A stretch of 64,000 nt of DNA. It comes from Ginglymostoma cirratum (lineage: Eukaryota). A program made the position numbers and the translations under genes. The notes under the pieces were generated by a model. That model was not told where the DNA came from. It ran no database searches and saw nothing but the letters and a program-made list of their open reading frames with translations. Where the stretch lies: the NCBI GenBank assembly GCA_024137785.1, contig JAHRHZ010000066.1:1410491-1474490 (forward strand), given 5' to 3'. Positions 10,628 to 51,739 of the stretch are shown one piece after another (position 1 is the first letter of the stretch; every line of letters starts with the position of its first letter).

Positions 10628-10701
10628 CTGGCAGAACGACTACAAATGAGGAGCTTGAAGACATGCTGGAGAGTGGGAATCCCGCTATCTTCACATCTGG
10701 G
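10628..10701 (+). CDS. STX1A: Syntaxin-1A internal exon (74 nt; Habc-SNARE linker), equivalent to human exon 7
   Basis: tttcAG acceptor and GTgagt donor; encodes (T)[24 protein letters not shown]; GNPAIF.SG fits STX1A rather than STX1B (GKLAIFTDD). Confidence 0.95.
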
Positions 10702-14420: not shown

Positions 14421-14558
14421 ATCATAATGGACTCGAATATAACAAAGCAGGCGCTGAATGAGATTGAGACACGACACCACGAGATCATCAAACTGGAAAA
14501 CTGTATCCGTGAGCTGCACGATATGTTCATGGACATGGCAATGCTGGTAGAAAGCCAG
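14421..14558 (+). CDS. STX1A: Syntaxin-1A exon (138 nt), N-terminal half of Qa-SNARE motif ending at the 0-layer Gln
   Basis: tctctcacAG / GTaaga; [46 protein letters not shown]; in frame with the previous exon. Confidence 0.97.
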
Positions 14559-17503: not shown

Positions 17504-18389
17504 AACGTGAAATAACAGACATCAGAAAGGACAGATTTCCCTACTCGCTCCCTCTAACATGCCAACACTGGACAGAAGCAGCATACATGAAGTGCCAGGA
17601 TTAGCTGATCTTTGGCAGTGCTTAGTGTAGAAGGGGGCCTAATGCAGTGTGTTGGCACTTTTTAGCTACAAACAATAACGGTCTCAATCAGAGCTAATGA
17701 TCCTAGGATTGGCTGTTGGAATCTCGAGGGACCTGGAGTATTTGATCTGAATTGTGAAACCCTCAGCTTTGGGGTTCAGGACTGCTGGGAGAAAAATAAA
17801 AATGAGAATAGTAGCAGTGGCGATGGGATGTTCAGTGGGACTCGGCGAAACACACTGCCATTTCTTTTCCTGCGGAGGTGGGCTTTCTCTTGGGAATAAG
17901 TCAGTAAAGATTAACATTTACATGTAGTGTCCAGAGAATCCTCATCCTAGTATAAACGCTCTAAACAGCAGTGACAGGGAGTAGAAATGCTCCATGGGTC
18001 AAAATCTATTACGGTTCAAAACTAAAGTCAAATCTTTAATAGCTTCTGCAGTTTTCCAAATCGAAGTGATTGCATGATCTGATAATTGAGTCCTAGCAAA
18101 AGTGAATGAATGGCTCACTGTGTCATGGTGGGAGATAGCTTATGTACTGTTTCACCTCCACATTCAGCTGTGGGATTGTGGTGATCCACCAGGTGAAAGG
18201 ATGAGTTCCATGCAGTCAGGCAGTAGTTACTGTGGGGCTGAAGAATAAAGCTCTTGGAGGCTTCAGCTGGGGTTGGGGACTGCTGCAAGGTGTGGGCAAT
18301 GAGCAAGCAAAAGGGAGGCTTTTCATGTTTGTGTTTTTGTGTGCTCGGAGTGTCTGGACACCTTGTCAACCCTTTACTTTCTGTTTCAG

Positions 18390-18500
18390 GGTGATGTGGT
18401 CAACAGCATTGAGCAGAACGTCACCAATGCAGCGGATTATGTCGAACAGGCAAAGGACAGCACAAAAAAAGCAGTTAACTTTCAGGGTACAAGCAGACGG
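18390..18500 (+). CDS. STX1A: Alternative (duplicated) SNARE C-terminal exon 9A of syntaxin-1A, STX2/STX3A-like
   Basis: ctgtttcAG / GTaagt; 111 nt, phase 0/0, open; GDVVNSIEQNVTNAADYVEQAKDSTKKAVNFQGTSRR; 18/37 aa identical to the adjacent exon with all heptad layer positions kept. Confidence 0.9.
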
Positions 18501-18576
18501 GTAAGTGGCTGAAGAGAACACACTCTGAGAAGATCTGTTATTGTCATGTGTCTCTGCTCTTTTCCTTGATGCCCAG

Positions 18577-18687
18577 GGAGAGATGATAGACAGGATCGAA
18601 TACAACGTTGAGCACTCAGTTGACTACGTAGAGAGGGCAGTGTCCGACACGAAAAAGGCGGTTAAGTACCAGAGTAAAGCACGACGG
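18577..18687 (+). CDS. STX1A: Canonical syntaxin-1 SNARE C-terminal exon 9B
   Basis: gcccAG / GTaagt; 111 nt; [37 protein letters not shown]. Confidence 0.97.
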
Positions 18688-18959
18688 GTAAGTAGTGCAA
18701 GTATCTCCATCTCAGCATGTGGCATGGTCAACTCCATTTGTGAACCGTGCTTTTCCCAATCCCATCACAAGAGACCACAGTAAAACAATGTTTCTCAAGC
18801 CTTGTGTTCACATGATTGACCTGCAGACTATATCCATCCCCAGATACCCTGCAGCCTGTATCAGCTGCCAGTCTGCAATTCCCTGAACTTTTCTCCTGAG
18901 TTAAGGACACTGCCCCTCAATCTGTCTGGGTTTATTATCGATGGTGTATGTTCTGCATA

Positions 18960-19270
18960 AAATGTCACTGGACCGTTTACTCCTGAGGCTGAGGTTCAGA
19001 GGACATGAGTTCAAACCAATCCAGAGCAGCTAATGGAATTTAAATTCATTTAGTAAAAGAAAATCTGGAATTGAAAGCTAGTGTTTGTAATAATGACCAT
19101 GTAACTAGCATTGGTTTTTATAAAAACCATCTACAAGTATCTTCAAGGGAAGGAAATCTGCCATCTTCACCTGGTGTCACCTACATGTGATTCCAGTCCC
19201 ACAGTTACGTGGTCTATCCTTAACTGCTGTCAAGGCGACAGAGGGATGAGGGACAAATGTGGCCTTGCAA
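18960..19270 (+). mobile_element. tRNA-derived SINE, decayed
   Basis: aatgtcactggac...gagttcaaacc...ggaaggaaatctgccatcttcacctgg...; same family as 26840-27420 and 29200-29540. Confidence 0.65.
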
Positions 19271-21964
19271 AAAAATATAAAACAAAACTGGAGCTCTTGG
19301 CCCGTTGACACAATATGCTGTAGTAGAATATACACACGGGAGTGTTAGACTCAGTGAGTATATTTTGAAATATACATAGCACACCACAACTCAGTGGTGC
19401 AACCTTAAAACTAACCTTAATTTCTACCAATTTCTCCCCCTCCCTGATATTATTATGTTAGGGTGATACCATTGTTAAGTAATGTCTATATGTCACCACA
19501 GTGTAGTAGCAGGGAACAATTACGTCACTTTGCTAGAAACAGATCTTGGTGAGCTGAGAGTTATCTGAAGACTCAAGCACACATTTTTATTGAATGATGG
19601 TGAACACTTGACATGGCTCACCAGCTATTCAGAAAACTGTCTTGTAATGTATGCCCAGGCTTTCAATGGTATATCTGCAAAGACCAATCATACTTTTTAA
19701 CATGCACCAGGGAACCAAAAATATCAGGTAAGAATGTTAACAGATAGAAGACAAAGCCCATGTCCATGGAATCATGACAGAGAAACATTTGCTTTGCTGA
19801 CACTTATTGCATTCTGTGGTTTTTCCATTCCTTTTACCTATGCTTGGAGCCTCTGTGAAGCATTTCTCCCAAAAACTCTTGGATTGCTATCCCTTTCATG
19901 CACACTTTACCACACAAACCAGCTGGTAGTTAGCATTCCAATGCAACATCCATTACTCATGGTGAGCACTGTTGTGGCATCCTTGCAGAAAGTACCAGCT
20001 GTATTTGCAGTGGTGGTTAGTAGTATATTAGAGGCAAGGCTTCTGCATGTGGTGACTTGAACAACATTGAGTGAAATTACAGATAGTTGAACTAGGAAAG
20101 TAGCCGTACTAGACCTCGTACTGGGGAATGAGCCTGGCCAGGTGACGGAAGTTGCAGTGGGCAGCATTTTCTGGAACAGTGATCATAATTCTGTAAGGTT
20201 TAACATAGTTATGGATAAAGATAAGACTGGTCCTCAGGTGAAAGTTCTAAACTGGCTGAAGGCTAATTACAACAGTATTAGGCAGGAACTGGAGAAATTA
20301 GATTGGGGCAGCTGTTTGAGGATAAATCCACGTCTGACATATGGGAGCCCTTTAAAGGGCCAGTTAATCAGAGTTTAGGACCAGTATGTTTCTATGAGGA
20401 TGAAAGATAAAGATGGCAAGATTCAGGAACTCTGAATGACAAGAGCTATTGAAAGTCTCCTCAAAAAGAAAAAGGAAGTGCATGTCAAGTTTAGGAAACT
20501 GAAATTAGACAAAGCCATTGAAGAATACAGAGGAAGCAGGAAAGAATTTAAACAAGAAATTAGGAGGGTTAAAGTGGCCATGCAATGTCCTTGGCAAGTG
20601 GGATTAAGGAGAATCTCTAGGCATTTTATACATATATTAGGAGCAAGAGAGTAACCAGGAAAAGGGCAGGTTCAATCAAGGACAAAGGAGGGAATTTATG
20701 CATGGAGCCAAAGAAAGTGGGTGAGGTGTTTATTGAATATTTCACATCGATATTCACCAAGGAGGAGGACATGGATGATGCTAAGATTAGGGGTATGTTG
20801 GTATTCTCGGGCAGGTCGAGATTAGGAAGGAGGAGTTGTTGTGTGATTTGAAAACCATTAAGGTAGGGCCTGATGGGATCAAATCCAAGATACTTAGGGA
20901 GGCAAAGGAGAAGATTATTGGTGACTTGACAGAAATCTTTGTATCCTGTTTAGCCACAGGCGAGGCCTCAATAAACTGGAAGATAGCCAATGTTATTTCT
21001 TTGCATACACAGGGCAACAGAGATAATTGAAGAAATTATTGGCCAGTGAGACTTACATCAATGGTAGGGAAACTATTGGAGAAGGATTTGGGACATTATT
21101 TACTCACATTTGGAAAAGAATGGATTTATTAGAGGTAGTCAGCATGGCTTTGTGCAAGGGAGGTCCTGACTCACAAATTTGATTTGAGTTTTTTGAGGAA
21201 GTGACGAAGATGAATGACAAGGGTAGGACAGTGGATGCCATCTACATGTATTTTACTAAAGCATTTGACAATGTCCATCATGGTAGGCTAGTCCAGAAGG
21301 TTAAGTCACATGGAACCCATGGTGAATTGATAAGTTAGACGCAGCATTGGCTTGGTCATGGAAGGCAGAAGGTAGTTGCAGAAGGGTGTTTTTTTCTGAC
21401 TGGAAATCTGTGACCGATGGTATTCTGCGAGAATCAGTGCTGGGACCTCTGTTATTTGTAAAATACCTAAATCATTTGGATAAAAATATAGGTGATCTGA
21501 TTAATAAGCTTGCAGCTAACACAGAAATTGGTGGAGTTGTGGATAATGAATAAAGTTGTCACAGGATAAAGCAGGATATAGATCATTTGGAAGGTTGGGT
21601 GGAGTAGTGGCAGATGGAGTTTGATCTGGACAAGTAGGAGGTGATGTATTTTGGGAGGTCAAATGCAAGAGGAAGGCGTACAGTAAATGGCAGGACCTTT
21701 GGGAGCATTGAGATACAGAGGAATCTTGAGATGCAAGTCCATAGCTCCATAAAAGTGGTGACACAAATGCACGTGGATAAGGTTGTGAAGAAGGTGTATG
21801 GCTTGCTTGCCTTCATCGATCGGGGCATTGAATATAAGAATTGGCAAGTCATATTGCAATCAAACTTCAGTTAGGCCACATTTCAAGTATTGTGTGCAAT
21901 TCAGGTCACCAAACAATAGGAAGAGACTTTGGAGATGGTAACAATAGAGATTTACCAAGATATT

Positions 21965-22170
21965 AGAAAAAGCAAGATCTACAAATGCTGGAGCCAGAGA
22001 CAACACAGTATGGAGCTGGAGGAACACAGCACGCCAGGCAGCATGAGAGGAGCAGGAAATTTGATGTTTGGGTCAGGACCCTTCAGAAGACCCAACCTGA
22101 AACATCAACTTTCCTGCACATCTGATGCTGCCTAGCCTGCTGTGTTCCTCCAGCTCCACACTGTGTTGTC
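21965..22170. mobile_element. Palindromic Penelope-type insertion nested in CR1
   Basis: Inverted arms gacaacacagtatggagctggaggaacacagca / tgctgtgttcctccagctccacactgtgttgtc; flanks tttaccaagatatt (21951-21964) and tttgccaggaagtt (22171-22184) look like diverged copies of the CR1 word tttaccaggatgtt. Confidence 0.75.
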
Positions 22171-22442
22171 TTTGCCAGGAAGTTGCCTGGATTCGAGTGT
22201 ATCAACCACAAAGAGAGGTTGGACAAATCTGGATTGTTTTCGAACTTGGATGCTGAGGAACGACCTGATAGAAGTGTATAGTATTATAAGAGGCATGGAC
22301 AGAATGGATAATTGGAGTCTTTTACCCTACGGTGGACATATCAAATGCTGGGGGATATAAGCTTAAAATGAGAAGAGAAAAGTTTTAAAGGAGTCATGCA
22401 GGTTAGAGAGGGGGTGGTAGGTTCCGCAAGTGTACTGCCATG

Positions 22443-22938
22443 GGAGTCATACAGCATGGAAAAGGACCCTTCAGTCCAAACAGTCCACGCCAACCATGTT
22501 CCCAAACTAAACTAGTCCCACCTGCCTGCGTATGGCCCATATCTATCCTGTTCATGAACTTAGCTAAATGTCTTTTAAACGTTGTAACTGGCCCTGCATC
22601 CACCACTTTCTCTGGCAGTTCATTCTATGCACACATCATTCTCTATGTAAAAAAGAAGTTGCCTTATTTTTTAAATCTTTCTCTTCTCAGCTTAAAAACA
22701 TTCCCCCTAGTTTTGAACTCTCCCACCCCAGGGGAAAGACCCTTGTCATTCACCTTATCTATGCCCCTTATGATTTTATAAACCTCAATAAGATAACCTG
22801 TCAACCTCCTATGCTCCAGTGGAAAAGTCCCAGCCTTTCCACTCTATTCTTATATCTCAAACCTTCCATTCCCAGCAACATCCTGGCAACGTCCATTTCT
22901 GAACCCTCTCCAGTTTAATAATATCCTTGCTGTAACAG
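22443..22938 (-). mobile_element. CR1 3' fragment inserted in opposite orientation into the CR1 above
   Basis: Minus strand reads ...VDAGPVTTFKRHL.KFMN and a CR1 3' UTR; the host CR1 resumes at ggtggtagaagcag (~22940). Confidence 0.85.
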
Positions 22939-25900
22939 GGTGGTGGTAGAAGCAGATACAGTAGCAACATTTAAGAGACATTTAGAAAGATACAACCAGG
23001 CAGGGCATGGAGGGATACAGACATGTGAAGGCAGACGAGATTAGTTTAGAATGGCATCCTGATTAGCACAGACATGATGGGGCCAAGGGCCAGTTCCTGT
23101 GCCGTATTGTTCTATGTTCTAATTGGGAATTGAAAAGATACTGAGCATTACATTCCTCAAACTATCTTTCCAAGAGGTGTGCTAATGTTCATTCCACTGT
23201 CCAACCCATTATTTCACTCAATAATTTTTACCCTGAACATGCTTCCTTAATGCAGTCTATCCTGATCTAAAGTATTTAACATTTCAATGTAATCTAACCA
23301 CCTAAGCCTATTTTTAATCGGACCAATATATCTGACCTAATCTTTAACATTACATGTTGTCTCATCATTACGTGTCCTATTTTATTGTATTGAAAGACTC
23401 AGATCTCTCCCAACGTAATCTAATCTAGTCATCATATAATGGATCTGAGTGCAATAGATCCTTGTCAAATCTATACCGTTGCAATGTTTTATAAATAAAG
23501 CTAGCCTCATATCACTTATCCTGTTATATTATATGCCAATACAATCATCCCTAACAAAATCAGTCCAGTACAATCTGTCCAATTAGTGTATTTCAGTCTA
23601 ATATGTCCCAGCTGTTTTCTTGCCCCAGTACAAGCAACAGGCTCTCCTAGTTGATAAATATGGCCTGACATAAACAAAGACCTTTTCTCTACTGTAACCA
23701 CATGCTTTCACTTTGCACTCATTTGAGGATTTTTAGTTAATGTGATGTCTACTCCCCACTTGAGCCAATCTGAATGAGATTGCCAGTGTGGTATTAACCA
23801 TACCAGACAGGGTGTAACTTACTGCCATAAACCAACATACTTGGTGGCTTTGGGCTTGGTCAGGATTGATGTATGTTTTTTCCAAGATCTTGCAGCCAAC
23901 TGATGTATAAACTTCTGCTGCAATCGACCTCAAATCAAATTATACCTTTATCCTCTCCTGTGATGTTACTAGATTGAGTTAACAATATCTAGACACAATC
24001 AAACCAAAAATTACAATTAGCAAAGTCTTCTCCAGGACTATCCTGATATGATAGGACTTTGTACAATGTACCTAAGACCCCTATTTATCCCTCTTGTATT
24101 TATCCCAATATATTACTGTGGTTTATTCCATTCTGATACACCTTACAGAGTAGCCTAATCTATTACAATGGAAAGCATCCAGGATATATGTGCTTTCTAA
24201 TACCAAAATAAACACTAATGATAAGGATGGGAAGCAGACTTAAGGTTCGTATGAATTATAGCCACCAAAATTGGGTAGATGTATTTTGAACAGGGTATTG
24301 AAATCTTAAAATATCAGAATTCTGACTCCAACCTGCCTGCTTTTAGTTTCATCAAAGTGAGATGGGAATGGACAAACCAACTCAAAGTCAGAAGATTAGG
24401 TAGAAATATAAATATTTTAATGGAATTGCTTGCATAACATTTGATCTCCATTATGAGTTCACCCCAGGTCGAGGAGTTTTCCAGGCCTTCCTAAAGCCAA
24501 GATCTAAAAGGAGATGATGATTGAGAAGGTTCATGATGGATACATGTCACCACCTTCACTCAATCCTGCCCTTGGACACACCCCCAACAACCTTTCCATC
24601 CACTCCATAAGGTCAATGATCTCAGTCCCACTCCCTAACTCGAACAATCTGCCAGTGATCTCTCCATTCTCCCTCAATCCCCAATATTCCTATTAGATTC
24701 TAATCTTGCACTTGGCCCTCATTCACTTTTCATTTTGGATCCTAATCCTTCCTCTGATTGGGATCAACATCAACATCACTCTAGCCTTTTAATCTTCCAC
24801 TTGACTTCAGCCTACCTCTCGGCCATTTATCTCACCCTACTGCGGCTTTTCCAATCCTGCTGTCCCTTGTCTCTGTTCCCTGGTTATGGTCTGTCCTGAA
24901 GTCCTTCCTGCCTAATGGGCAGCAAAGATCTAGCTGCATATGATCAGTAAACAAATAAAAATAAAGCTGATTAGATCCTGCTATTAAATTTGTCAGGACC
25001 TGTAGGGAACTTGTTATTTCCTGACCTCCAATCAGACTTCTTATTTCTGAGTTCAGCTTGTTGTTTATGACTGCTAAACTGAGAGAGATTGCAGGAACAC
25101 AATGGAGTGCAATCTTGTTATTTGAAAATCCACAATATTCAAATACAAGCCTTACGACCTGACCTGTGTTCGAGTTAAAGACAGATGCTGTTGTATTCCA
25201 CAAATGTTAGAACCTTAATTGTGTGTCATGGAAATAGCATACAAACTGTTCTTTAAATATTTCCATTAAAGTTTCTGCTAAATTTAAGTTGCATTAATGT
25301 AAAATCCTCCATGATTGGTGCAAGCACGCAAGTAATAGAATGCAAATTTTAAATTTCAAAATCTCCTTGATATATTTAACAGTGATAACCTGCTCTAATT
25401 TTGTTTATAAAGCTTTAAAATGGGTTCATCACCAAAAATAAGCAAATTAGTAAATGTTCCAGTTTTCCACCTGTGAACAACCAGATTTAAAATCATAGAA
25501 AATAACAATTAAGCACGATACTGAGCCATTTCATAGTTTTGTTGGTGTGTGCTAATCAGCTCCTTACTGAATTGTGTTCTTTGTGTGATTAAACATGTTG
25601 TCCATGTCATATCACAATCTTCAGAATGTTACATTTCCAAACTGGGAAGCAGGGTCAGTTTGCCCGATGCAGGCAAATCAAAAGTCAAATCTTAGAAGCA
25701 AAGTTCATAAATAACCCAAATGTAAATAGTTTGGAATATGACCCACTAGTGTTTAAAGCTCGTTTGTGCAGTTCAGCTGATTCTGTCTGGATTGCACTGA
25801 TCTTACTGACATGAATGAGCAAAAATTTGATCCCCTCATTTTTACTAGCAATGAAAGTCAATAGATAAGGGCATGGTAGGAGTCAGTGAATATGGTTAGT

Positions 25901-26839
25901 ATCACAAACACCACCTTACTCATGAGGTTGTAATCCCAAATTTTAGAACTAGAAGCTCTTAGGCTGACTTGTATTGTATACAAATCCTTTTAACAAAGTT
26001 TAATGAAGATTGTTAAATTTGTTAAATGTTTTAGATAATCGACAGATGATTTATGTACTATGTTACTATGAGAAATATCAACTAGAACGGTTTCAAATTG
26101 TTCATGATTATACAGCTTCTTACATGGGAGATCGTGAATGGAAAATATTGAGGAAGTATGTGAAATGTATACCAACAGAAGATGATATTCAATAGGTATC
26201 TAAAGATAATTAAGGGTAAGAATAAATTAGAAGTAAAATAGTAGATGGAAGGTTGTAGTAAAATACCATTACAAACAAAAGCAAGTAAAATAATCGGAGA
26301 AGTGAAGAACACGAAATGTATGGGGAAGACATCAAAAGTGACAATGCAAGATTTATAACTGTGTACTCATTAAACAATGGCTGCAAATATATCAGTTTAC
26401 CTTAAATGATGGTGAAATGATGGTTCTGCAATTAAACAAATTCATCTTTACTCCAGGAGATAAGCAGGATTCACTGGAGTCTGAGTCACGTTTCCAGGGA
26501 CAAAGATAAAGGAGCGAGACAATATGTCAATCCTGATGGCTGTGGTCATTAAAAAGATAGAAAGCGCTTAGACAGTGTTACTGCACCTGACACTTTGAGC
26601 ACAAGGGTTTCAGGGAGTAGTAAGGCGTGAAGTCTCAACCATCTTTAATGAGTAGTTCTAGAGGATTAGAAAGTGGTTTACATAACTTTTCAGGTTTATA
26701 GTTTCCTTCTTGAAATAACAATTTTATGTCCATCATAGAAAAGGCCTTGAAAAGCATTTTGAAGTTTCAACAGGTTAACACTTGGAAAATTGTTACCATT
26801 TAATTGGAGAATGCTAGAGGAGGTCACATAAGGGAGGTG

Positions 26840-27420
26840 ATAGACTCATGATATTATCACTAGACTATTAATCAACAAACCCAGGTAATGTTCTGGAGAT
26901 AACAAAATGTGAAAGTGGAGGAACACAGCAGGCCAGGCAGCATCAGAGGAGCAGGAACGCTGACGTTTCGGGTCGGGACCCTTCTTCAGACTCTCTTTTC
27001 TGAAGAAGGATCCTGACCCGAAACATCAGCTTTCCTGCTCCTCTAATGCTGCCTGGCCTGCTGTGTTCCTCCAGCTTAACACTGTGTTAACTGACTCCAG
27101 CATCTGCAGTTCTTGCTTTCTTAATGTCCTGGAGACCTGGGTTTGACTCTCACCATGGCAGATGGTGGAACTTGAATTCAATTTTTAAAAAGTCTAATGA
27201 TGACTATGAAACCATTGTCAATGACAGGAAAAAAATGCATCCAGTTGGCTAATGCCCTTTAGGGTGGGAAATCTGACGTCCTTACCTGATCTGGCCTACA
27301 TATGATTCCAGACCCACAGCAATATGATTGACTCACTTGCCCTGTGGCCAGTTAGGGATGGGCAATGAATACTGGCCTAGCCAGCGACACCCACATCCTG
27401 TGATGAGTTGAAAAAGCATT
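26840..27420 (+). mobile_element. tRNA-derived SINE split by a Penelope-type insertion
   Basis: Head atattatcactagactatt...taatgttctggaga continues after the insert as cctgggtttgactctcaccatggcagatgg; tail ggcctagccagcgacacccacatcc. Confidence 0.75.
26900..27121. mobile_element. Palindromic Penelope-type insertion with 14-bp TSD and two opposed hammerhead-like cores
   Basis: TAATGTTCTGGAGA 26886-26899 and TAATGTCCTGGAGA 27122-27135; ~85-bp inverted arms; CTGAAGA-A-stem-GAAAC on both strands. Confidence 0.8.
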
Positions 27421-29199
27421 CACCTCCCTGCTAGAGTTTGTCACAGACCATACCAGTACCTTCCTAGTGGATGGGACAACAAATGGTATTATAAATTTGG
27501 ATTTTCACAAAGCTTTTGGTGAGGTTTTACACTAACAATTAATGGGTAAAGTAAGGAGTGATGGATCATGGGGTAAACATGATTCCAGTTAGAGGGTGCA
27601 GAATTCTGCTCAGCCTTACATTAGCAGAGAACCTGTGTACAAATGTAAAGAGGTTACACTATTGCTGTAAGTGGAGTTGATCTCACCTAGAGCCCTGGAT
27701 GCAATTCCATTGATTTGATCAGTTCCATAAAAGCCACAAACCAACCCTGGAATATTCAGTAACAGCACAAGAATCATACGGACTGTGATCGCTCAAATTG
27801 AAATGTACAATACTGATGTATAACTTCTTAATAGCCTATATTTCCCATTGTGTTCCCCCTACCATCCACCCCCTCAATTTTGCTCTGCAGTAATTTCATG
27901 ATGGATGTGACAAGGAGAGAAATAGAGCAGAGATTGATAACACCAATTCCCAGCCACTTTATTCCTGCTAGATGCATATTAACAAGGAAGTAATGATATG
28001 ATGCCATCCTATTTCTCATTTTCATGAGTTTTCATCACAGCACATTTTTTTTGGAATGCTGAAGGGAAATTTGGTTTGCAGAGACAAGCCTGCCTGGTTA
28101 TTGCTGCAGGTGAAACATATTTTACTTTTGCATTTGCTGCCTATTTTTCCATTTTTGATTAGTTGGCATTTTCCTTCACTTCCCTCTTTACTTTTAAGAC
28201 AACAAAGAGTGGGTTTTTCCCTCAGGGTTTCCACTGTATCTTTGCTTCTTGCAACAGGAAGAGGAACAGTTTCAGGGTTCTATGGGAATATGGTATCCAG
28301 ATGCCAACACCCACCCATCAGAGCACCCTTGGGGAATCAGTCCTACCTGTTTTTAAGTGACAAGAAATGCCTGAGGAAGGTTAATTTTTTGTCAGCTGTC
28401 AGAACTGCCATGCTTCAAACCAGTCTGCAGCCCACTTCTACCTCATCCACCAGTGTCTGTTATCACCAGCTCCCTTCATGTCTGTAATAATGTGATTTCA
28501 TACTTGCCGCTGTGCACATCTGTGACAGCCAAACATTGTGCACAGATGTGTATCAAGCAATGCACAGCTTGTTATTCTTTGGAACTAGTAATTTTGTCAT
28601 TCTGCCATTGACAACTGGTGCCAACATGATAGTACACTGGAATTCTATTGATTTTTCAAAGTCCAGTGATTGTTTCAACTCTAGGTTAATCATTGCTTCT
28701 CCTACATGCTGTTCGAGTGTTGGTAACTGTGTCGGAAAGGGTTTGAGGTGGTCCTAGTCTGAAAACAGCCATGTCCTGATATGTACTATGTGTAGACAGC
28801 CTGACCCTACATTGTTCTACGCCACAGACATAGCTGAGGGGAGAGCACTCATATTGCATTCTCTGGTTGTTCCTCGTACCAAGCACTGATCTGAGGGAAA
28901 GGAGAGGGAAGGGTTATATGGAAAGCAGTGAAGCACTGAATAATATTTGGCTGCAACTGAGTGGCAAATCCATCCACACAATAACAGACAGCTTTGTCCA
29001 ACCTAGGGGTTAAAGACTTCTATGTTAGTCTGAATCTCCATGGAAGAAGCAATGGCTTCTTTAAGAATGCTGTAGGATGATTTCTATGAGAGATGTTTCC
29101 GAAATTGTTGCATGTGGACTAAAGTGCTTGGCACTGTTATATGGTCCTGTTCCAAGGGTCCCCATTATTCATAGTACTGACAGATGAACTAACAAAGAG

Positions 29200-29540
29200 G
29201 TGACAGTGACGTATTGCTAATGTCACTACACTAGTATCCGGAGACCCAGGCTAATGCTGTGGGGACGTGGGTTCAAATGTCACCCTGGCACTTAATGGAG
29301 GTTGAAAGCTGGTCTCATTATTGGTGACCATGACCATGATTATTAGTTCAGGAAAGGAAGTCTGCCACCCTTAATTGGTCTGGCCTACATGTGGCTCTAC
29401 ACCTGCAGCAATGTGGTTGACTCTTAATTAATTACATTCAGAAATGGTCATGGTCTAGTAAGCCACGCAATTCAAGGGCAGTTGGGGATGGGCAGCGAAT
29501 GCCGACTACCCAGTGATGACCACATTGCATGAAAGACCAC
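29200..29540 (+). mobile_element. tRNA-derived SINE, decayed
   Basis: aatgtcactacactagtatccggagacccaggctaatgct...gggttcaaat; ggaaaggaagtctgccaccctta...ggtctggcctacatgtg. Confidence 0.7.
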
Positions 29541-29999
29541 TTAAGGGACTCAGCTCACTGCAGTTGGGACTAATCCAACTGCAGATTGGCCGCCCACTGT
29601 GTCGGTGTGTACAGTAACTGAAACCGTGCAGGCAGCGTAGGCTGGACATTCTGAAGGACAGGCCTGTTGAGAAACATGCCCCTACCCATATTGCTGATCC
29701 ACCCCCACCCAATCTGACCACAAACCCCACGTGGTGAAATGCCCCATCCCCACATTCCTTACTTGGGATTCTTCACCAGATAACACCCCTGAGACCTCAA
29801 CATCATTCCACCCATAGAGTGGGAAATATTGAGGGCTCTATTACACATTGGGTATGTATTACTCCATAGCATTTGAGAGACAGCAAGTGCTTGGCTTGGA
29901 CTCTGTCACGTTCTGAATGTTTTGTTTTCTGCTGCAGTTTTCTTGTGCTGTATTCTTGCATGCTGAGCTTCATCTGGTTGTTTTCTTCCCTTCCCACAG

Positions 30000-30077
30000 A
30001 AAAAGATCTTTATAGGAATTTGCATTGCAATAGTACTGTTGGTTATCATCATTGTTCTGGCTGTGTATCTCAGTTAA
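30000..30077 (+). CDS. STX1A: Alternative last coding exon 10A: second transmembrane anchor of syntaxin-1A
   Basis: Strong acceptor ttttcttcccttcccacAG; phase 0; KKIFIGICIAIVLLVIIIVLAVYLS* = KK plus 23 uncharged, mostly hydrophobic residues, as expected for a tail anchor after ...RR. Confidence 0.88.
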   Translation, partial: KKIFIGICIAIVLLVIIIVLAVYLS

Positions 30078-30489
30078 TGCTCCAAATCAACAGAATCATC
30101 CTGATTGAAACTAAAGCTGGGCTTTTGTTCCACCATCATCATGCAGCACTCTTGTGGAACAGAGAGACGGCAAGACATCATTACTGGGCATTTCCATTTT
30201 GTTTTGTCAAACATCTATCACGAGGTGATGTTCGTAGCCACCGAGATCATTACTCAGATTTCAGTTCCACCCTCCAGTCCGGACTTTTTCTTTTGGCATC
30301 ACTGTAAGCTGAAGAACAACATCAGGACTCGTGCTGCTGTTTCTCCTCTATTGTTTATTGGTTATTCTTCTTTGAGAAACATTATAAGAATGAACGTCGC
30401 CTTAACAGGCCATGGTTTCATCAACTTACTGATCGACTTTGAATCCAGCTGACCTTCTGCTGTAATCAGGTTTTTTATCATTTCTAATC

Positions 30490-30620
30490 AATCTCTTCCT
30501 TTGCTTCTCTCTTCTCTCCTCCTTTCTCCCCTTCTGTTTTCCTCATCCTTCCTCTCTTTTTTCTCTTCCCTTCTGTCTCTCTCTTTTTCTCTCCCCCCAT
30601 CTCTCTCCATTCCCTCTTAG
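30490..30620 (+). repeat. ~130-nt CT-rich polypyrimidine tract ending in TAG
   Basis: Nearly all C/T; no AG between 30470 and 30618. Confidence 0.85.
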
Positions 30621-30949
30621 ATTTATCCCCTAAGTGTGTAAAATCCACACAATTCCAGTTAGAGATACTTACCCCAATGCAAAGATAAAATGCGCACTAA
30701 TACAGATCAATGTGATTAAGCTGTAAAGAAGCTCCACTGATGTGAATAATACAAACTGAGCTTCCATTCCTACTGTTATCCTCCTTCAAACAGAAACAAA
30801 GCAAGGTTAAAAAATGCGACAGGGGAAGAACAGGGAAACGCAGTTAGAACAGATACCTCCACATGAAGGCTTACAAACACATTGGGACATCTGCTCTCCC
30901 CTTTTTTAATATTTTACATTCCTAGAAAGACAAAAGGGTAAACCTGTAA

Positions 30950-32190
30950 CTAGAGTCATAGAGGTCTACAGCATGGAAACAGGTCCTTTGACCCAATTTG
31001 CCCATGCTGTCCAGTTTTCACAGTTAAAGTAGTCCCATTTGCCTGAGTTTGGTCCATACCCTCCATACCAATCCCATCCATGAACCTGTCTAAATCTTTC
31101 TTAAATGACAAAAATGTACTCGTTTCCACCATTATCTCTGGCAGCCTGTTCAAGACATTCGCCACCTTCTGTGTGGAAAAAATTTCCACCTTTTGGACCT
31201 TTTTGTATCTCTCCCCTCTCACTTTAAATCTATTCCCTCTAGTTTTAGACTCCCCTACCATGGAGAAAAGCTGTTGGCTATCCACCTTATCTGTGTCTCT
31301 TGTGATTTTATAGATTTCTATAAGGTCACCCCTCAATCTCTTATGCTCCAGGGAAAATGTCCCAGCCTATCCAACTTTTCCTTTTAACGCAACCCTTCCA
31401 GTCCATGTATAGAATCCCTACAGTGTGGAAGCAGGCCATTCAGCCTGTTGAGTACACACCAACCCTCTGAAGAGCAGCCCACTCAGCCCCACCCACTACC
31501 CTATTCCTGTAAACCTGCATTTACCATGGCCAATCTGCCTGACCTGCACATCTTGGATTGAGGGAGGAAACTGAAGCAACTAGAGGAAACCCACGCAAAC
31601 ACAAGGAGAACATGCAAACTCCACACGGACAGTTGCCCAAGGCTGGAATTGAACCCAGGTCCCTGGTGCTGTGAGGCAGCAGGACTAACCACTGTGCCCC
31701 CCATTGACATCCTAGTAAATCTTGTCTGCACTCTTTCTAGTTGAATATCCTTTCTATAGTACAGTGATCAGAACTGCATGCAGTAGTCCAAGTGTGGCCT
31801 CACCAACATCTTGTACAGCTGCAACAGGATGTCCCAATTCCTATACTCAGTACTCTGACTGATGAAAACAAGCATGCCGAAAGCCTTTTTCACTAGCATG
31901 TCTACCTTTCACTCCACTTTCAAGGAGATATGAATGTTTACCCTTAGATCTCTTTGCTCCAAAACACTCCCCTGGGCCCTGACATTGACTGTGTAACGCC
32001 TACCCTGGTTTGACCCACCAAAATACAACGTCTTACATTTATCTGAATTAAGCTCCATCTGCCATTCCCTAGCCCACTTGGCCCAGTTGATCAAGATCTT
32101 GCTGCATTCTCAGATAACTTTCCTCACTGTCCACTATACCACCAATCTTGGTTTCATCCATTAACTCACTAACCATACCTCCTACATTCT
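30950..32190 (-). mobile_element. 5'-truncated CR1 LINE interrupted by an HE1-like SINE
   Basis: Minus-strand fragments DETKIGGIVDSEE, WQMELNSDKC..LYFG, RGDLIEIYKI, TRGNRFKV. Confidence 0.9.
31408..31702 (-). mobile_element. HE1-like tRNA-derived SINE
   Basis: Minus strand ggcacagtggttagtcctgctgcctcacagcaccagggacctgggttcaattcc...gtgtggagtttgcatgttctcc; same family as 54133-54448. Confidence 0.85.
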
Positions 32191-33819
32191 CAGAACAAAA
32201 TAATTCAGAATGAAAAATATGTTTAACGACAAGAATCAATACAAATACACAATAGGAGAATGTACAGGAAAAGTGCAACAGATACGGATCCAGATACACA
32301 TGACTATGCAAACAGGGTTACATAGGTAGAATTTATGGAACATAAGACTGTTTAGTTAACTGCACCTGCATTTAAAAAAAGTTCTCCTGACCTTTTGCAA
32401 TAATTTTTAAAGTTATGAGCCCATGTTATAAGTCTAACTACCAGTGAATTTACATGTTCCTTACTTACCAAATCAAACCTCCTTCCACCTCTTCCTAATT
32501 TTCAACGCAGTAACTAAAAATTGCTCACTTTCTTCAGTTTCTCCTCAAAACTGAAATATCTTGATGCTAGAATAATCTCTTTTGCCCTTGAAATGTTCCT
32601 AAAATTTGGCATGCAACAGCAGAAAGCATTTTGTGGTTAGCACAAAGGGGTGGCACTCACTCATGATTTTGAAGAAAGTTGCCTAAAATAAGTTAGTGGG
32701 TTCTGCAGTGTCAATTTCCCCTAATCTGATGCAGCTTTCAACTTGACATCAATAGAGACTTTGTTGTTTCCTCAGTCCTTGAAGTCACCAAAGAGGCTGA
32801 AAAGCCATCTAGGTTGAAGAATTCAGACTGACAACAAGATGAGGAAATTAAAAGTCACAAATTATAATTCAGCTTTCATTGACAACAAAATAAAGATAGG
32901 AACATTCACGTGCAATTAAAGTAAAATCTGAAATATCAACATTAATAAAAAGAAAATAAATTATTTTAAAAATCTATGGGTTTTTTTTTAAATAAAGGAA
33001 ATGGAACTTATGAAATTAGCTTTTCACTGCCAAAGAGCTTGTTCAGGACTAATTATGATTTAAAGTGCCAATTAAAATCTTAGTTTACACCTCATTCGAC
33101 ATTGTCAATTTCAATGAGTTTACAATTGAAACAGTTCATTGGAAGTTGAAGTTTACACCAGCACACTGATTTTGTGTTGAATGCATTTGTGATGACTGCA
33201 ACAGCACACCCTGTGCAGCTTTTAATGTTTAACTGTGTGTCTGTAGCCCACCAAAAATTGCTGTCAGTTTTAAACATTGACTACCACTGCTGGTAGTTTT
33301 ATCATCATTGCAACCTCAAACGCTTCCTCGGTACTGCTCAATTTCCATCATTATAACTCTGGGCTTGGCTATAGGGTGTAATATCAAAATTACCAAGGCA
33401 GCTAAGTGATTTCAGTTGGATGTAGACAGGATAATAGATTGGGCAGATAGATATCAGCTAAAGTTAATGTGGATAAATGTTAAGTGATTCAGTTTTTGAA
33501 GGAAGAATAGAGGACAGAAGGTCTCTAAATTGAGTAGAGGAATGGATGGAATTCACACGCAAAAATCTTTAAAATGGAAAGGAACAATTGACAAGACTGT
33601 AAAAGAAAAATTTTCTTAATTTGGTACAAGAATAAAAGAGGTAATGCTAAATTGATGCAATTCATTAGCCAGGTAGCAGATGGAACAATAGTTAAAGTGA
33701 AGTCTAGGAGATACAGTTTCTTTCACCAATTCTACCTTACCTATAGATGTTGGGTACAGTCTCATTAGCTGCAGGCACCCTCTAATACCCTATCTGATTT
33801 GACAATTTGCATGAGTACT

Positions 33820-34230
33820 TCACAAGAAAATAGAAGCGGGGGAGAAGGCCATTCAGCCTTTCAAGCCTGCCCCACTATTCAATAAGATGATGGCTGATCT
33901 GCACCAGGCTTCAACTCATCTTTCGTGCCAACTCCTCGTTGCTCTCAACTCCTTGATATTTCAGAAATGCATCTACATCCTCTTTAAATGCTTGCAATGA
34001 TCTAGCCTCCACGACTCTCTGGGGTAGACAATGTCAGATATTCACTACCCTCTGAAAGAAAAAATTTCTTCACAACCCACTTTTAAATGTGTCCATTACT
34101 CTGTAATATGTCTCTTAGTTCAAAATGCCCCAACTACAGGAAACATCTTTACATTTACCGTACCAACCCCGCTCAGGGTCTTGTATATTTCAAAAAGATC
34201 ATCCTTATTCTTCTCTAACAAATGAAGGTC
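33820..34230 (-). mobile_element. CR1 3' fragment
   Basis: ggccattcagcc..tcaataagatgatggctgatct...ttcactaccctctgaaagaaaaaatttct (reverse-oriented CR1 end). Confidence 0.75.
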
Positions 34231-35019
34231 TAACTTGTTTACAAAATCTATACTGACTCTGTTTAGCTGTGATCAGCTTTTCTAACTGTGCTACTGTTTG
34301 TTCCTTAATAATGGACTCCAACAAGTTTTCCAGTGACAGGTATGAAAATCTTGGTAGTCACCCCCTCCAAATCCAGCACCCTGAGGGGAATTATAGAGCC
34401 CCCTACCGTAATGCTGACCTATATGACCTAACACTATCCTGAGTAATGCATTTACTGACCCATAATCAACCAAACGAAGAGTTACTTTTGCACAGCAAAA
34501 TATGGCTATAATGGGTAAGGCCTGTAAATTTTATTCATCCTGTGCCATAACAGCGGGGATTGGAATAATTGTTCTGTTTTGCAATTGGATATATACAGCA
34601 TTGTTACAGAATTAGCATACACTGAATTACTTTAATGAGGCTGTTAACATGGTATTGTATTAAGGGGTAAGAGTAAACTCATTTTAGTAACAAAAACAAT
34701 ACTATTACTCTTAAAATCATTGCTACAGGAACAAGGAACCCTTTAAGTGTTGGAACCCCTTTTCCCATCTCCACAATTAACAGAGGTGTCACTGACCACA
34801 TTGAGCCATTGGGATGAATTTTTATTCCAAAATGGACAGAATGGCCCTGGTAACATTGCCTCTCCCCATACAGCTTTCTGCCACCCACTTTCTATTCCCA
34901 ATTCCAGATAAAAAAAGAAGTGGGCAGCATTTCCTTTCCATGGTAAACTCAGTGAGATGCGGGAGTTGGGAGAAGTCTTTGGTCAGGTCAGAAGGTAAAC
35001 AAGGTGAATTAATATATAC

Positions 35020-35520
35020 ATATATAGGGTAGTTGGGCAGATACCGTGATGTCAGGCAGATAGGGTGTTGTTGGGCCTTTTCAGGTGATCTAGGGTAGTC
35101 CTTGGTCAGACCGAGGACCAGTTGGATTGCACTGGGGAGTTTTATTGGGTCTGGTCAGGTGAGATGTTGGGTGTTTGGGTAGGGATAATGCTGCTTGGGG
35201 CTAGTTGATGGTCAGTGAGGGGCAGTTAGGTGAGGTCAAGGGAGGGCTAATCAGGAGGTATAGGGTGGTCTGTAGGTAGCTGGTGGGTTGTCATGGTGAG
35301 TAATTGAGTACGGCTGGGGAAATAATCGAGTGGTGGGAGTGTAGACAGATATGGGATACGTGGGAAGAATATTTTGGTGTTAGGGAGGGTAGTTAATTGG
35401 CCCGGGTGTAAATCAGATTAGCTTGAAGGCTAGTTGGATCAGGTCAGGATATTGCAAGTGGTCCAGGGATAATCAGGATGTGATTTGAGAGATCAAATGT
35501 GGGGCTAATTTGAGCTACTT
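35020..35520. repeat. G/T-rich low-complexity or decayed tandem repeat
   Basis: Recurrent ggtcagg / gggtagttgg words and strong strand skew; a mirror-image C/A-rich tract lies at ~41750-42290. Confidence 0.55.
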
Positions 35521-37158
35521 TGGCTAGCTAGTGAATTAGGTAAGGTATTAAACCAACTAACATTTCTTGGTTAAAAATCCAGACAAGTTTCTTGTGTCTG
35601 GCCTTGTATTTCCACCTTGAACTCAGAGTTGGAGACATTTGTGGGTGTCCCAAGTAGCAGATGTCGGCCCATTGGAAGTTTAAACTTGCTAGGCACCTTC
35701 CCCATGTCTGTGTGTCAGGACCTCCACAAGGTCGTACATCTCCCTCTGTACGTCCCATCTCCAATTATCTAGAGACTGGACAATTTATGTCGTTGAGTTC
35801 CATTGCTGTGGAATGTGTAGAATAGTCTGCCAATGCAATACCAGTCATTGTGCACCTATGCCCGAGATGAATCTCTAGATCAGTGTTCCACTTGACTGCA
35901 AATCCACAGCTCTGCCCATTACGTGTGGCTAATGTGATCATTCTGCAGATGAATTATCCCTTCTTTATCTTATTCTGTTTTTTTTGCATCTCCATTACAG
36001 CTGTCACTTTATCTTCATCCATTTATGAAGAACTGGCTCAGTGTTTTTCCTTGATTGTATATTTTATGGCTGCTTCGCTATTGTTTGATAAAATATAACA
36101 TTTCAAAAACATTTTTCATGGAACTTGTTTACAGCACGTGCAGGTGGTGAACAGTCACACACTCTGTGGGAAACAGTTGAATATTTCTTATAGACCAGTA
36201 CTAAACTCCACAGCAACAATTCTATAGGCATCGAGGCTAAAGGGAAATCAGGTTTGAAAGGTGGGCCACAATTTTAGGGGAAATGTGGGCAAACTGAATA
36301 TTGTTTTTCATGATACCGTGTAGTGCCTGATGATGAAGATCGTATTGAAGGAGAACAACACACACTCACACCACATAATGCACACTCAGCAAATAGAACA
36401 TGTACAGCACATACCTCTTGAGTAGTATTATGGTAAGATACTAATGATGCAAAATTGAGCTCAGTTAAGCCATGAATGCCAGCGTCCTAATTTTCAAACT
36501 AACTTCAAGTTTTCCAAATCTATAAAATATTCAGGCCTAGCCAGTATATCAGTCAGCAACCAGTTAATAAAAGTCAAAGCTTTACAAAAACAATGCATTG
36601 AGTTCTAAACTGAAAAGGTACAAACTGGACAAACTCTTTACTTTGCCCTTTATTTCATGTAAGTGTTAATATGAAGAGTTTGTAAAGAGTGGGATTTTCA
36701 TGTCAGATGTTCATTAAGGTGAGACATTCTAGTATAGGGTGCAGAAGGGGGAAGGGTCTTTGAAGTGAGTCAGTTTCTACTGGAAGCAGTTGGGTAATCT
36801 ACAATGTATATGGCATTTGGAATATGATGGTTTGACGTTTGTAGTGGGTTGGTAATATGACGCTTTTAATGAGAGGCTGTGCAGTAGGGGTGGTTCATAA
36901 CAGAGGGGTACTTATGTTGTGAGATAAATTTGTAACATTGGAAGGTTGTTAATATTGGAGGTGTTTGTAATGTGTTTGAAAGGGTTGGTACATTTCATAA
37001 AGCCAGTTTATTAATGTAAAGGGAAGATTTTAATCTCTGTTGGAATTGTTCATCTTCCATTCTGTAAAGATCCTGTTCATTAATTGTAAAATAAAATCAC
37101 CAGAACTAACTATTTCTCCTCTTCTTCCTGTCATGCTGCTTGGATGTGGGGCCTGCAG

Positions 37159-37239
37159 AAGAAGATTATGATCATTATATGCTGTGTGGTGCTGGGGGTC
37201 GTCATCGCCTCCACAGTTGGGGGAATATTTGGATTTTGA
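37159..37239 (+). CDS. STX1A: Canonical last coding exon 10B of syntaxin-1A (transmembrane anchor)
   Basis: ACTAAC branch motif 37105-37110, pyrimidine tract, ctgcAG; KKIMIIICCVVLGVVIASTVGGIFGF*; IASTVGGIF fits STX1A. Confidence 0.97.
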   Translation, partial: KKIMIIICCVVLGVVIASTVGGIFGF

Positions 37240-39100
37240 AAAACACAAAATAGGAGAGAATCTACCAATGTGATGTGGGCAGTTCAGCCACTTTGTGAGA
37301 ATGAAGTGACTTTCACTCAGTAACACTGAGAAAGGTTTCTCTGCATGACTATCTAGCATTACTTCCTTTACTGGTCCTGCTCTTTCTGGCTGTTAAGGTA
37401 TGGTAACATTTATTTTTTTTCTTTAATTTCTTTTTCAATGATGCGCTGTTTGCCATAAACACATGAAAATTTGGCCCTGGAAAAAAAAACTCTTCACATT
37501 TAAAGGGATTGATCTTAACCCAATGATTGCCAAAGCCAAAGAAAGCCCACTTAACACCAACAAACACAGCGGCTGGAGTCAACATTTTATAAGACACTGA
37601 TCACAAAAAGGCAATATCTTTTTTAGAAACTCAAATTAGTGTGCACAAGTTTTCAAATCTTGCCAAGGTTGGAAGAATGCAGTGATCCGACATCTCATCA
37701 ACATAATGGTAACCCACTGGACCAGTCTGAAGACCATGATCCCAACAACCTGTATTGTGGAAATTCTTATCTTCATAACATTTCCATAGATGGAGGCGTG
37801 ATCTGGTCTGAAAATGTTCTGCTTTAAGTGTAAAACTTGATGTTTGTTACTGTGGGCGAGGACCTGCCAGACTGTCTTTGAAGCCTCTCTTCTGATCTCA
37901 GCCTTATTCCTTAGCTAATTACAGTAATTTTTCATTCACTGTCATTTCTTCATGTGACGAAGAATCACTGATGAAGATTCTCTCAAGTGGTGCTATCGCT
38001 GCCTGTGATGTTAGAGAAAAGGCTGACAAGATCTGAAGAGTATCTTTAAAGGATTCAGCTTTTTAAACAAAAAAAAGTGAAATGAGAATGGAACAATTCA
38101 AATAAGTTGTCATCAATATATTTTATGTACTCTGCTCTGGTAAAAACAAAATCAGGAGCTGGGCCGGTGAACCAATAACAGTTCTACCAGTCAAAAAATA
38201 AGTTATTTCGGCTTACTCCAAGTGGAAGCGGAACCTTTGGAAAATATACACTTCACATCCATCTCTAATTTTATATAAGGTGCCCTCAGTAAGGAGCAGT
38301 TTCCATTTCCTATTTAACCTATGACCTAAACAGAGAAGAAGCTCTCATTTAAAATCCATAAAGGGCTTGTATTAGGAGATCTGCACCTTGTCTTTAGTTT
38401 TACATTCAGAATTCTAATTTGTTTTAATCCCATGTGACGTGAAGCTTTTATTCTGGCTGTTTTACAAATATTACCCACTTGTCTAGTTTTACCAAGAATA
38501 CACTGGTCCTTACCAGACGCCAGCATTGCCATTGTGCAGTCCTGGGCAGCTAGGTATCCAAGGGCTTTAAAGAGCAGTTAGTCAAGACTTGCCACTCTGC
38601 ACTTGGGTATGGCAGCTCCTTTGGGTTGTTGAGGTGATGTCAGTCTGTATGTGATGCAGCAAGTTCTGTTGCCAAATTTCTTCCAGTCTTAGTAAAAGTA
38701 CATTTTATTTATGCAATTTATGTATGGAAAAGAAGTAACCAGATTTTTAAAATTCCAGCTTTTTGTTGTCTATTCCAGCAGTGGTGATGCAAGAAGGCTT
38801 CCTACGCAGGGCGCTGACATGGTGCCATGAACCAATTCACTAAAAGCCCCTGATCAGTTATGTGTACTTTACAGTTTTTATGTTTTAAAGTTCCAGTTAC
38901 AGCTATCCAGTTCAATCAATTTCAGTTGCATTACCTCAAACCTCAGTATTTTGCACATTTGAGCTATTTCAAACTCTGCACTTTTTTTCTATGTTTTTAC
39001 CATAATATAAAATTACTGAATTTTTCCTTCTCTGTTTTATTGTTACATTGCCCTATTTCATGCCTTATTACATTTACTTATAAACACTTTCCCTTAGAGT
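37240..39100 (+). other. Probable 3' UTR of the exon-10B isoform (end not determined)
   Basis: Repeat-poor, AU-rich sequence after the stop codon; the first AATAAA I noticed is at 40959, so the true end is uncertain. Confidence 0.5.
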
Positions 39101-50129: not shown

Positions 50130-51040
50130 TGCAGATGACACTAAAGTCGGTGGAGTGGTGGACAGTGTGGAAGAATGTTGCAGGTTGCAGGGATACTTGG
50201 ATAAACTGCAGAATTGAGCTGAAAGGTGGCAAATGGAGTTCAATGCAGATAAATGTGAGGTGATTCACTTTGGGAAGAATACTAGGAAGGCAGAATACTG
50301 GGTCAATGGAAAGATTCTTGGTAGTGTGGATGTGCAGAGGGATCTTGGTGTCCAGGTACATAGATCCCTGAATGTTGCCACCCAGGTTGATAGTGCTGTT
50401 AAGAAGGCATACGGTGTGTTAGGTTTCATTGGTAGAGGGATTGAGTTCCAGAGCCATGATGTCATGCTGCAACTGTACAAAACGCTAGTGCGGCCTCACT
50501 TGGAATATTGCGTACAGTTCTGGTCACCCCATTACAAGAAGGATGTGGAAGCATTGGAAAAGGTGCAGAGGAGATTTACCAGGATGTTGCCTGGTCTGGA
50601 GCAAAGGTCTTATGAGGAAAGGCTGAGGGATTTGGGTCTGTTCTCATTGGAGAGAAGAAGGCTAAGAGGGGATTTAATAGAGACATACAAGGTGATCAGA
50701 GGATTAGATAGGGTGGACAGTGAGAGTCTTTTTCCTAGGATGATGACATCGGCTTGTACGAGGAGGCATAGCTGCAAATTGAGGGGTGATAGATTTAAGA
50801 CAGATGTCAGAGGCAGGTTCTTTACTCAGAGAGTGGTAAGGGCGTGGAATGCCCTGCCTGCCAATGTAGTTAACTCAGCCACATTAGGGGCATTTAAACA
50901 GTCCTTGGATAAGCATATGGATGATGATGGGATCGTGTCGGGGGATGGGCTTAGATTAGTTCACAGGTCAGCGCAACATCGAGGGCCGAAGGGCCTGTTC
51001 TGCACTGTATTGTTCTATGTTCTAAGTTCTATGTTCTATA
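50130..51040 (+). mobile_element. Young 5'-truncated CR1 LINE, nested in an older CR1 (~49965-50125 and ~51085-51300)
   Basis: ADDTKVGG at 50131, one TGA at 50215, then an open ORF2 C-terminus (MEFNADKCEVIHFG...LVRPHLEYCVQFWSP...RRRLRGDLIETYK...); (TTCTATG)n-like tail at 51012-51040. Confidence 0.95.
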
Positions 51041-51739
51041 TATCAGTAATTAGAATGCAGCAATGGACTGTCATACCCCCAAGTTTGCCAATGACTCTAA
51101 GTGGCAATGTAAGTTATGAGGAGGATGCAAGGAGGCTTCAAGCAGATTTGGTCAGGTTAAGTGAAGGGCCAACAACATCCCAGGCGGAATATCATGCTAA
51201 TTAGTGTGAAGTTATCCACGTTGGTTGGAAGAACAGAATATTTCTTATTGAGGTTAGGAAGTTTTGGTACACAAACGGACCTGGGCGGTCATGTCCACGA
51301 GTATTGAAATGCAATAATCAATAGATGAGCTACAAAGCACAAGGAAGTTTTAAGTATGCAGCAGGCTTGAAGGATAATGAACTGAAATTTTGGAATCCCC
51401 AGCCCAAGGCAGCAAGACTGTCTTCACCCAGTTGTCCTCCCCCTACACTGCTCACCAAGGGATCATGACAATTTTCAAGATTTGAAATGGAAGAACATTG
51501 GGAAAAATGTCAGTATCTGGTATATAAGGAAGAGGAGATCACAGAGGGATTTGAACGTGCTAAATGAATTTTTGCATACCTTCCTTTCAAAATATCACCT
51601 GTGCCAATCCTATTATACTGTAAAGACTTCAGACCATTAGTATAAGTTGCAAAAAACTTTCCAGCTCAAACATTATTGACCATTTTCCAGTGGAAAGGAA
51701 ACAATAGCACAAGAGGGTGAAACAGTTTATAAAGATATA

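Follow-up and report, generated by a model that had tools for sequence, protein, structure and literature searches.

In the 64,000-nt stretch of Ginglymostoma cirratum DNA analysed here (the window), a syntaxin-1A (STX1A) locus carries two adjacent homologous exons, 9A and 9B, for the SNARE motif's C-terminal half. We consider it reasonably probable that in 9A this gene has kept the second member of an ancient tandem pair of exons of STX1, STX2 and STX3, giving an STX2-like STX1A isoform with weaker clamping. Such an isoform would be a natural version of the chimera built to locate syntaxin-1's clamp on spontaneous release; it suggests how STX1, STX2 and STX3 shared out ancestral splice forms and, overlooked so far, may be expressed in fish models of synaptic release.

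The placement of exons 7, 8, 9A and 9B and of the terminal exons TM-A and TM-B (Table 1) identifies the locus, on the strength of its sequence, as STX1A of the shark, with both the SNARE half-exon and the anchor exon present in two versions. The most 5′ of these exons, encoding the linker ahead of the SNARE motif, is the one we take to be exon 7. The 9A segment, used as query, retrieved a white shark protein named syntaxin-1A-like (P0004), and seven of the eight members of its cluster are named syntaxin-1A or syntaxin-1A-like. Exons 7, 8 and 9A match this protein and its cluster, and 9B matches the PDB syntaxin-1A sequence, alignment to which provides the residue numbering used throughout. Exons 9A and 9B have the organization of tandem exons, being adjoining homologues of 111 nt each, in phase 0-0 and bordered by AG and GT. 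The intron between them contains branch-point-like words at intron positions 9, 25, 38, 44 and 64-67, and its shortness may sterically hinder the joining of 9A to 9B.

Table 1. Elements of the STX1A locus, in window positions.
Feature	Position	Strand	Evidence
STX1A coding exon (linker) ahead of the SNARE motif	10628..10701	+	tblastn with P0004, 96% over residues 157-181
Exon 8, ending at Q226	14421..14558	+	P0004 match; AG/GT borders
Exon 9A, A-type C-terminal SNARE half	18390..18500	+	stop-free translation, AG/GT borders, alignments, Pfam
Intron separating 9A and 9B, 76 nt	18501..18576	+	exon borders
Exon 9B, C-terminal SNARE half of the canonical neuronal STX1A	18577..18687	+	36/37 vs PDB syntaxin-1A
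TM-A, alternative terminal transmembrane exon, one Cys (271)	30000..30077	+	matches the anchor that follows 9A in models of ray, coelacanth, sturgeon and teleosts
TM-B, canonical terminal transmembrane exon, Cys271 and Cys272	37159..37239	+	sequence

A sequence-only reading of this DNA had described a 37-residue exon 9A beside 9B, and the exon is real: its 37 codons run without a stop, 19 of the 24 bases preceding the acceptor AG are pyrimidines, and the donor, GTAAGT, is a full consensus. Exon 8 terminates at the zero-layer glutamine, and 9A and 9B both correspond to residues 227-263. The layer pattern of 9A is that of a Qa-SNARE C-terminal half, and the Pfam SNARE model (PF05739) scores 33 bits on 9A and 55 bits on 9B, both above the cut-off of 26.8. 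Layers +1 to +8, which we take to be positions 230, 233, 237, 240, 244, 247, 251 and 254, are V, I, V, A, V, A, T, A in 9A against I, I, V, S, V, A, T, A in 9B. The alignment bears out these residues and the overall identity as first read (18/37 residues; 67/111 nt), together with the substitutions D231N, E238T, K256N and K260T and the retention of E234 and of K253-A254. The further claim that every core layer is kept holds for six of the eight, the other two being changed, conservatively; for this pair alone, identity in layers (6/8) and elsewhere (12/29) does not differ significantly (Fisher p=0.099). Across paralogue exon pairs synonymous sites are saturated (pS 0.76-0.99, dN 0.28-0.38). 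The 9A isoforms are probably able to form SNARE complexes with SNAP25 and VAMP.

Exon 9A of the window is identical at 35-36 of 37 residues to RefSeq STX1A models from four other shark genera. Among the best 120 of 2016 matches (38 fish proteins, 81 tetrapod proteins, of which 74 are from birds and none from a mammal, and one from a mite), 37 of the 38 fish proteins have a 9A-type segment and none of the 81 tetrapod proteins does, counts that are not frequencies because the ranking favours 9A carriers and because 74 of the tetrapods are birds. Among the carriers are sharks, an electric ray, coelacanth, sturgeons, bowfin, eels, tarpon, bonytongues, salmonids, catfishes, carps and spiny-rayed fishes. 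Loss of 9A in tetrapods is likely, given the 81 listed tetrapod proteins and the human duplicated-exon catalogue, whose supplement has no STX1A or STX1B entry (PMC8373072). The coelacanth 9A segment, used as query, returned two candidates and not even STX2, so that this search cannot show absence from tetrapods.

Conservation was assessed on 29 rows of 9A (the window and 28 others, with same-genus or near-duplicate rows and one mixed-end eel model left out), all taken from protein models, among which broken copies could not appear. The frame is open in all 29 rows and 37 codons long in 28, and layers +2, +3 and +6 are invariant. Mean column conservation is 0.88 in layers and 0.62 at other positions (p=0.002, for rows related by descent); within the seven cartilaginous fishes the values are 0.96 and 0.91 (p=0.18). 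On the surface, 27 of the 29 rows have N231 and 24 have K248; none has R232 or an acidic residue at 238. The intact exon and the conserved layers support the earlier proposal that 9A is under purifying selection and not in decay.

The opposing view sees in 9A a relic of weak expression, exposed to relaxed selection and on its way out as in tetrapods; it seems to us very unlikely, even though 9A changes much faster than 9B: shark and bony-fish 9A share just 15-22 of 37 residues, and 9B is held at 36-37/37 by 125 of the 158 proteins fetched. It can also invoke the altered layers +7/+8 (I or V, and C) in five of the 29 rows, all from spiny-rayed fishes; the 9A of Scyliorhinus torazame, deviant at its C-terminal end and missing both arginines; and the comparison with Stegostoma, in which 9A differs at 1/37 residues and a translated 3′ control stretch at 9/97, a difference that is not significant (p=0.18). 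Against decay stand the open frame and constant length across cartilaginous fishes, ray-finned fishes and coelacanth, in rows that are protein models, and the three invariant layers. A nearly frozen 9B beside a faster-changing 9A points to selection on 9A that is much looser than on 9B. The spiny-rayed 9A, with Cys at +8 and a linker rich in lysine, is a distinct derived form. Separately, 9B itself matches at merely 26/37 in the STX1A models of the carp-family genera Anabarilius and Labeo, which suggests that in cyprinids selection on stx1a has relaxed or shifted.

The relationships of the exon were analyzed with a tree of 38 rows and 37 columns, including 11 of the 29 9A rows and no outgroup, in which six of the seven STX2-like rows and two invertebrate-like rows carry labels that we assigned to unnamed records. 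STX1A-9A, STX2-like and STX3A exons fall on one side, and 9B, STX3B and invertebrate-like exons on the other, of a branch supported at 97/91. A clade of STX1A 9A plus 9B is rejected on these 37 columns (p-AU 0.0002), a clade of STX3A plus STX3B is not (p-AU 0.19), and the branch joining 9A to STX2 reaches only 91/85. Direct comparison gives 19-25/37 identities between 9A and the seven STX2-like rows, and 21/37, counted by eye, with human STX2; together with the tree, these values uphold the likeness to STX2 noticed in the sequence-only reading. At 19/37, 9A matches the STX2 exon of the same shark barely better than it matches 9B (18/37). That STX2-like locus, named from similarity, has one A-type exon and no B-type exon within 40 kb. 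A recent duplication specific to sharks is rejected by the presence of 9A in ray, coelacanth and bony fishes as well as by the tree.

The split of the tree into A-type and B-type exons indicates that the duplication is probably older than the divergence of STX1, STX2 and STX3. On the simplest reading, a single exon duplication would have preceded that split and been followed by differential loss. The ancestral vertebrate gene would have held A-type and B-type C-terminal SNARE exons plus alternative anchor exons; STX3 would have retained A and B, STX2 would have retained A, STX1A of cartilaginous fishes, ray-finned fishes and coelacanth would have retained A and B, and tetrapod STX1A appears to retain B. 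Human STX2 has a single SNARE exon and two anchors according to the supplement of PMC8373072, which dates the STX2 and STX3 events to Bilateria; since these events are classed as C-terminal, the dating may apply to the anchors. TM-A is similar to human STX2's second anchor exon and to the anchor at the shark STX2-like locus (L010:9510), a likeness suggesting that the anchor exons, too, predate the split of the genes. Searches of this shark genome that scored best candidates only gave no match to an STX1B or STX3 locus; these loci were either overlooked by the search, absent from the assembly or lost.

The closest known architecture is that of STX3A/3B, whose splicing is well described (PMC11119284, PMC9183232). 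As in shark STX1A, two homologous 111-nt exons of 37 codons lie past layer 0, A before B, separated by a short intron and followed by two anchor exons (PMC8373072, PMC9183232, PMC11119284); the intron measures 119 nt in human STX3 (PMC8373072) against 76 nt here. Unlike in STX3, it is STX1A that carries the pair here, with B as its canonical form, and 9A has N231, as does STX2, where STX3A has D231. Fish STX1A models mix exons and anchors two by two, whereas in the two human STX3 transcripts each SNARE exon comes with an anchor of its own (PMC8373072). With an architecture known from STX3 and an exon that is already present in the automatic (RefSeq) STX1A annotations of many fishes, the finding is less surprising. 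No paper describing a duplicated SNARE exon in STX1A was found in the literature searched, a scope outside which most subscription papers fall; STX is unmentioned in the text and one supplement of PMC9741552 and in the text and searched supplements of PMC4494069.

STX2 shares with 9A the A-type SNARE half, N231, a non-basic residue at 232, no acid at 238, and K248; unlike shark STX1A, it is a separate gene with this exon type alone, and it keeps K256 and K260 in KYQSKARR where shark 9A has N256 and T260. Among duplicated exons of other SNAREs, the 5a and 5b forms of SNAP25 are much more alike than those of 9A and 9B. Like 9A and 9B they stem from a duplicated exon of a neuronal SNARE, in SNAP25 a mutually exclusive one (PMC2581893), but in another protein and another region. 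Arthropod syntaxin-1A models (woodlouse, shrimp, thrips, dragonfly and mite) carry at least two copies of the same segment, as shark STX1A does, but with the B-like copy first and with extra copies that keep R232 and fall on the B side of the tree; from that position, the arthropod copies are probably independent duplications.

The functional consequences can be approached through data from mouse neurons, in which the substitutions partly differ from those of the shark (R232N there, R232S in 9A). D231 and E238 belong to the synaptotagmin primary interface (PMC11213007, PMC10957171), and shark 9A carries D231N, R232S, Y235Q, E238T, V248K and S249D, so that all six positions tested in PMC10957171 are changed. 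The point mutants of that study (D231N, R232N, Y235R, E238V, V248K and S249E) left EPSC amplitude unaffected in all cases; with D231N/R232N the pool was lower and release probability twice as high. Its STX1A-2(Cter) chimera (Salazar Lazaro et al. 2024, PMC10957171), in which Q226-255 is replaced by STX2, resembles the 9A isoform in placing an STX2-type 226-255 segment on an STX1A backbone; it differs in retaining the STX1A linker and anchor, where 9A also alters 256-261 and may join the one-cysteine anchor. In the chimera, EPSC amplitude fell with the pool (from 0.5 to 0.2 nC), minis rose about threefold, release probability rose by 42% and kinetics were unchanged, and the authors argue against syntaxin's side of the primary interface serving Ca2+-evoked release. 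The D231N/E234Q/E238Q mutant of mouse STX1A had normal evoked EPSCs; its pool was reduced, and both release probability and spontaneous release were raised (PMC11213007). From these phenotypes we infer that the 9A surface would weaken priming and clamping, not triggering. Splicing of exon 8 to 9A would join the STX1A regulatory N-terminus to an STX2-like SNARE surface that, judging from the mouse mutants, would still zipper with SNAP25 and VAMP; the six surface changes would loosen both the stabilization of primed vesicles and the clamp on spontaneous fusion, giving a smaller pool and a higher release probability. The isoform would then probably be a minor, loosely regulated, STX2-like one serving secretion away from fast synapses.

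The sequence-only reading had drawn the other conclusion, namely that 9A isoforms form SNARE complexes but couple poorly to Ca2+/synaptotagmin and to PIP2 clustering, with slower or weaker evoked release. We regard this as unlikely. The alteration of both D231 and E238 and the reduced EPSC amplitude of the STX2 C-half chimera (PMC10957171) agree with it, but weaker triggering is largely contradicted by the normal EPSCs of D231N/E234Q/E238Q (PMC11213007), the unchanged kinetics of the C-half exchange (PMC10957171) and the raised release probability. Further arguments on both sides come from the linker. K264 and K265, cited as the main PIP2 binders (PMC9183232), are encoded by the next exon; both transmembrane exons of the window begin with KK, so that the pair is retained with 9A and the basic residues in 260-265 merely drop from five with 9B to four, which leaves little basis for the reduced PIP2 clustering. 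K256E and K260E lowered the pool (PMC9183232), in keeping with weak coupling. Wild-type STX3A, which shares with 9A plus TM-A the lack of K260 and of the cysteine pair, gave EPSCs of about 15% of the size with doubled rise and decay times; the linker and anchor of STX1A rescued this slowing, and the SNARE surface did not (PMC9183232). By analogy, a 9A plus TM-A isoform could possibly be slow through its linker and anchor, that is, from causes outside the synaptotagmin interface. A basic residue at 260 is required for full palmitoylation of the anchor, K260A/Q being partly deficient (PMC9183232), and K260T in 9A would reduce it. A basic residue at 260 occurs in 3 of the 29 9A rows. The predicted effects pull in opposite directions, K260T toward less spontaneous release and the 9A SNARE surface toward more. 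As for the K253-A254 bond, which we take to be the botulinum C cleavage site, the earlier observation stands for shark 9A but extends to only 11 of the 29 rows, so that the bond is not a conserved 9A feature and carries no special signal. Botulinum C cleaves both syntaxin-1 and syntaxin-2 (PMC9892835).

The 9A isoforms are known here from database gene models, not from RNA. These models carry 9A or 9B alone, several fish models carrying both in tandem; 9A is joined to TM-A in ray, coelacanth, sturgeon, tarpon and catfish, and to TM-B in bonytongue, char and catfish, the catfish models presenting all four exon/anchor combinations. The six shark 9A models, all of one 90% cluster, are without an anchor: four end by intron read-through, one in three other residues and one in an unrelated tail. 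It could be argued from these six, from the in-frame stop that the window has three codons into the intron 3′ of 9A, and from a reported soluble STX3 splice form (bioRxiv 10.1101/162958), that shark 9A mainly makes a soluble, anchorless syntaxin ending three residues into the intron and competing in the cytosol for Munc18 or SNAP25. We give this account a slim chance, as the shark evidence comes from that single cluster, read-through ends occur on many 9B models too and may be annotation noise, the 9A donor is a full-consensus GTAAGT, and models of ray, coelacanth, sturgeon and teleosts connect 9A to an anchor. For four contig sets examined over 18300-37300, none of the 15 joints and 24 loose ends listed, out of thousands, lay at an exon border; swamped by interspersed repeats, they are silent on expression.

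For an STX2-like, weaker-clamping membrane isoform, a broader scenario may be sketched, which we think rather improbable as a whole. The difference between STX1 and STX2, tight clamp against loose fusion, would have begun as a splice switch within one gene that fishes still use in neurons and tetrapods have lost. It would act in two independent steps, the SNARE-surface exon turning the clamp on or off and the anchor exon offering two cysteines or one, to give four isoforms under regulation; 9A would serve synapses where tonic release is high.

Other features of the window and genome were recorded alongside. High-copy interspersed repeats, some in inverted pairs, occupy 20100-23400, 26500-27800 and 30300-32250 in the intron 3′ of 9B. 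Six long frames of the window have no Pfam match, and no neighbouring gene was identified there; a 328-codon frame without stop and without a Pfam match lies at 50218-51204. Elsewhere in the genome, three intronless syntaxin-like frames of about 290-300 codons (contigs C267, C59 and C32) are presumably of the STX11/STX19 kind. Finally, an open stretch preceded by AG begins 70 nt past the TM-A stop (30147-30440); it corresponds to the terminal exon of two Stegostoma STX1A models, from which the window differs at 9 of 97 residues, and could represent a third ending or else 3′ UTR sequence that has been conserved.
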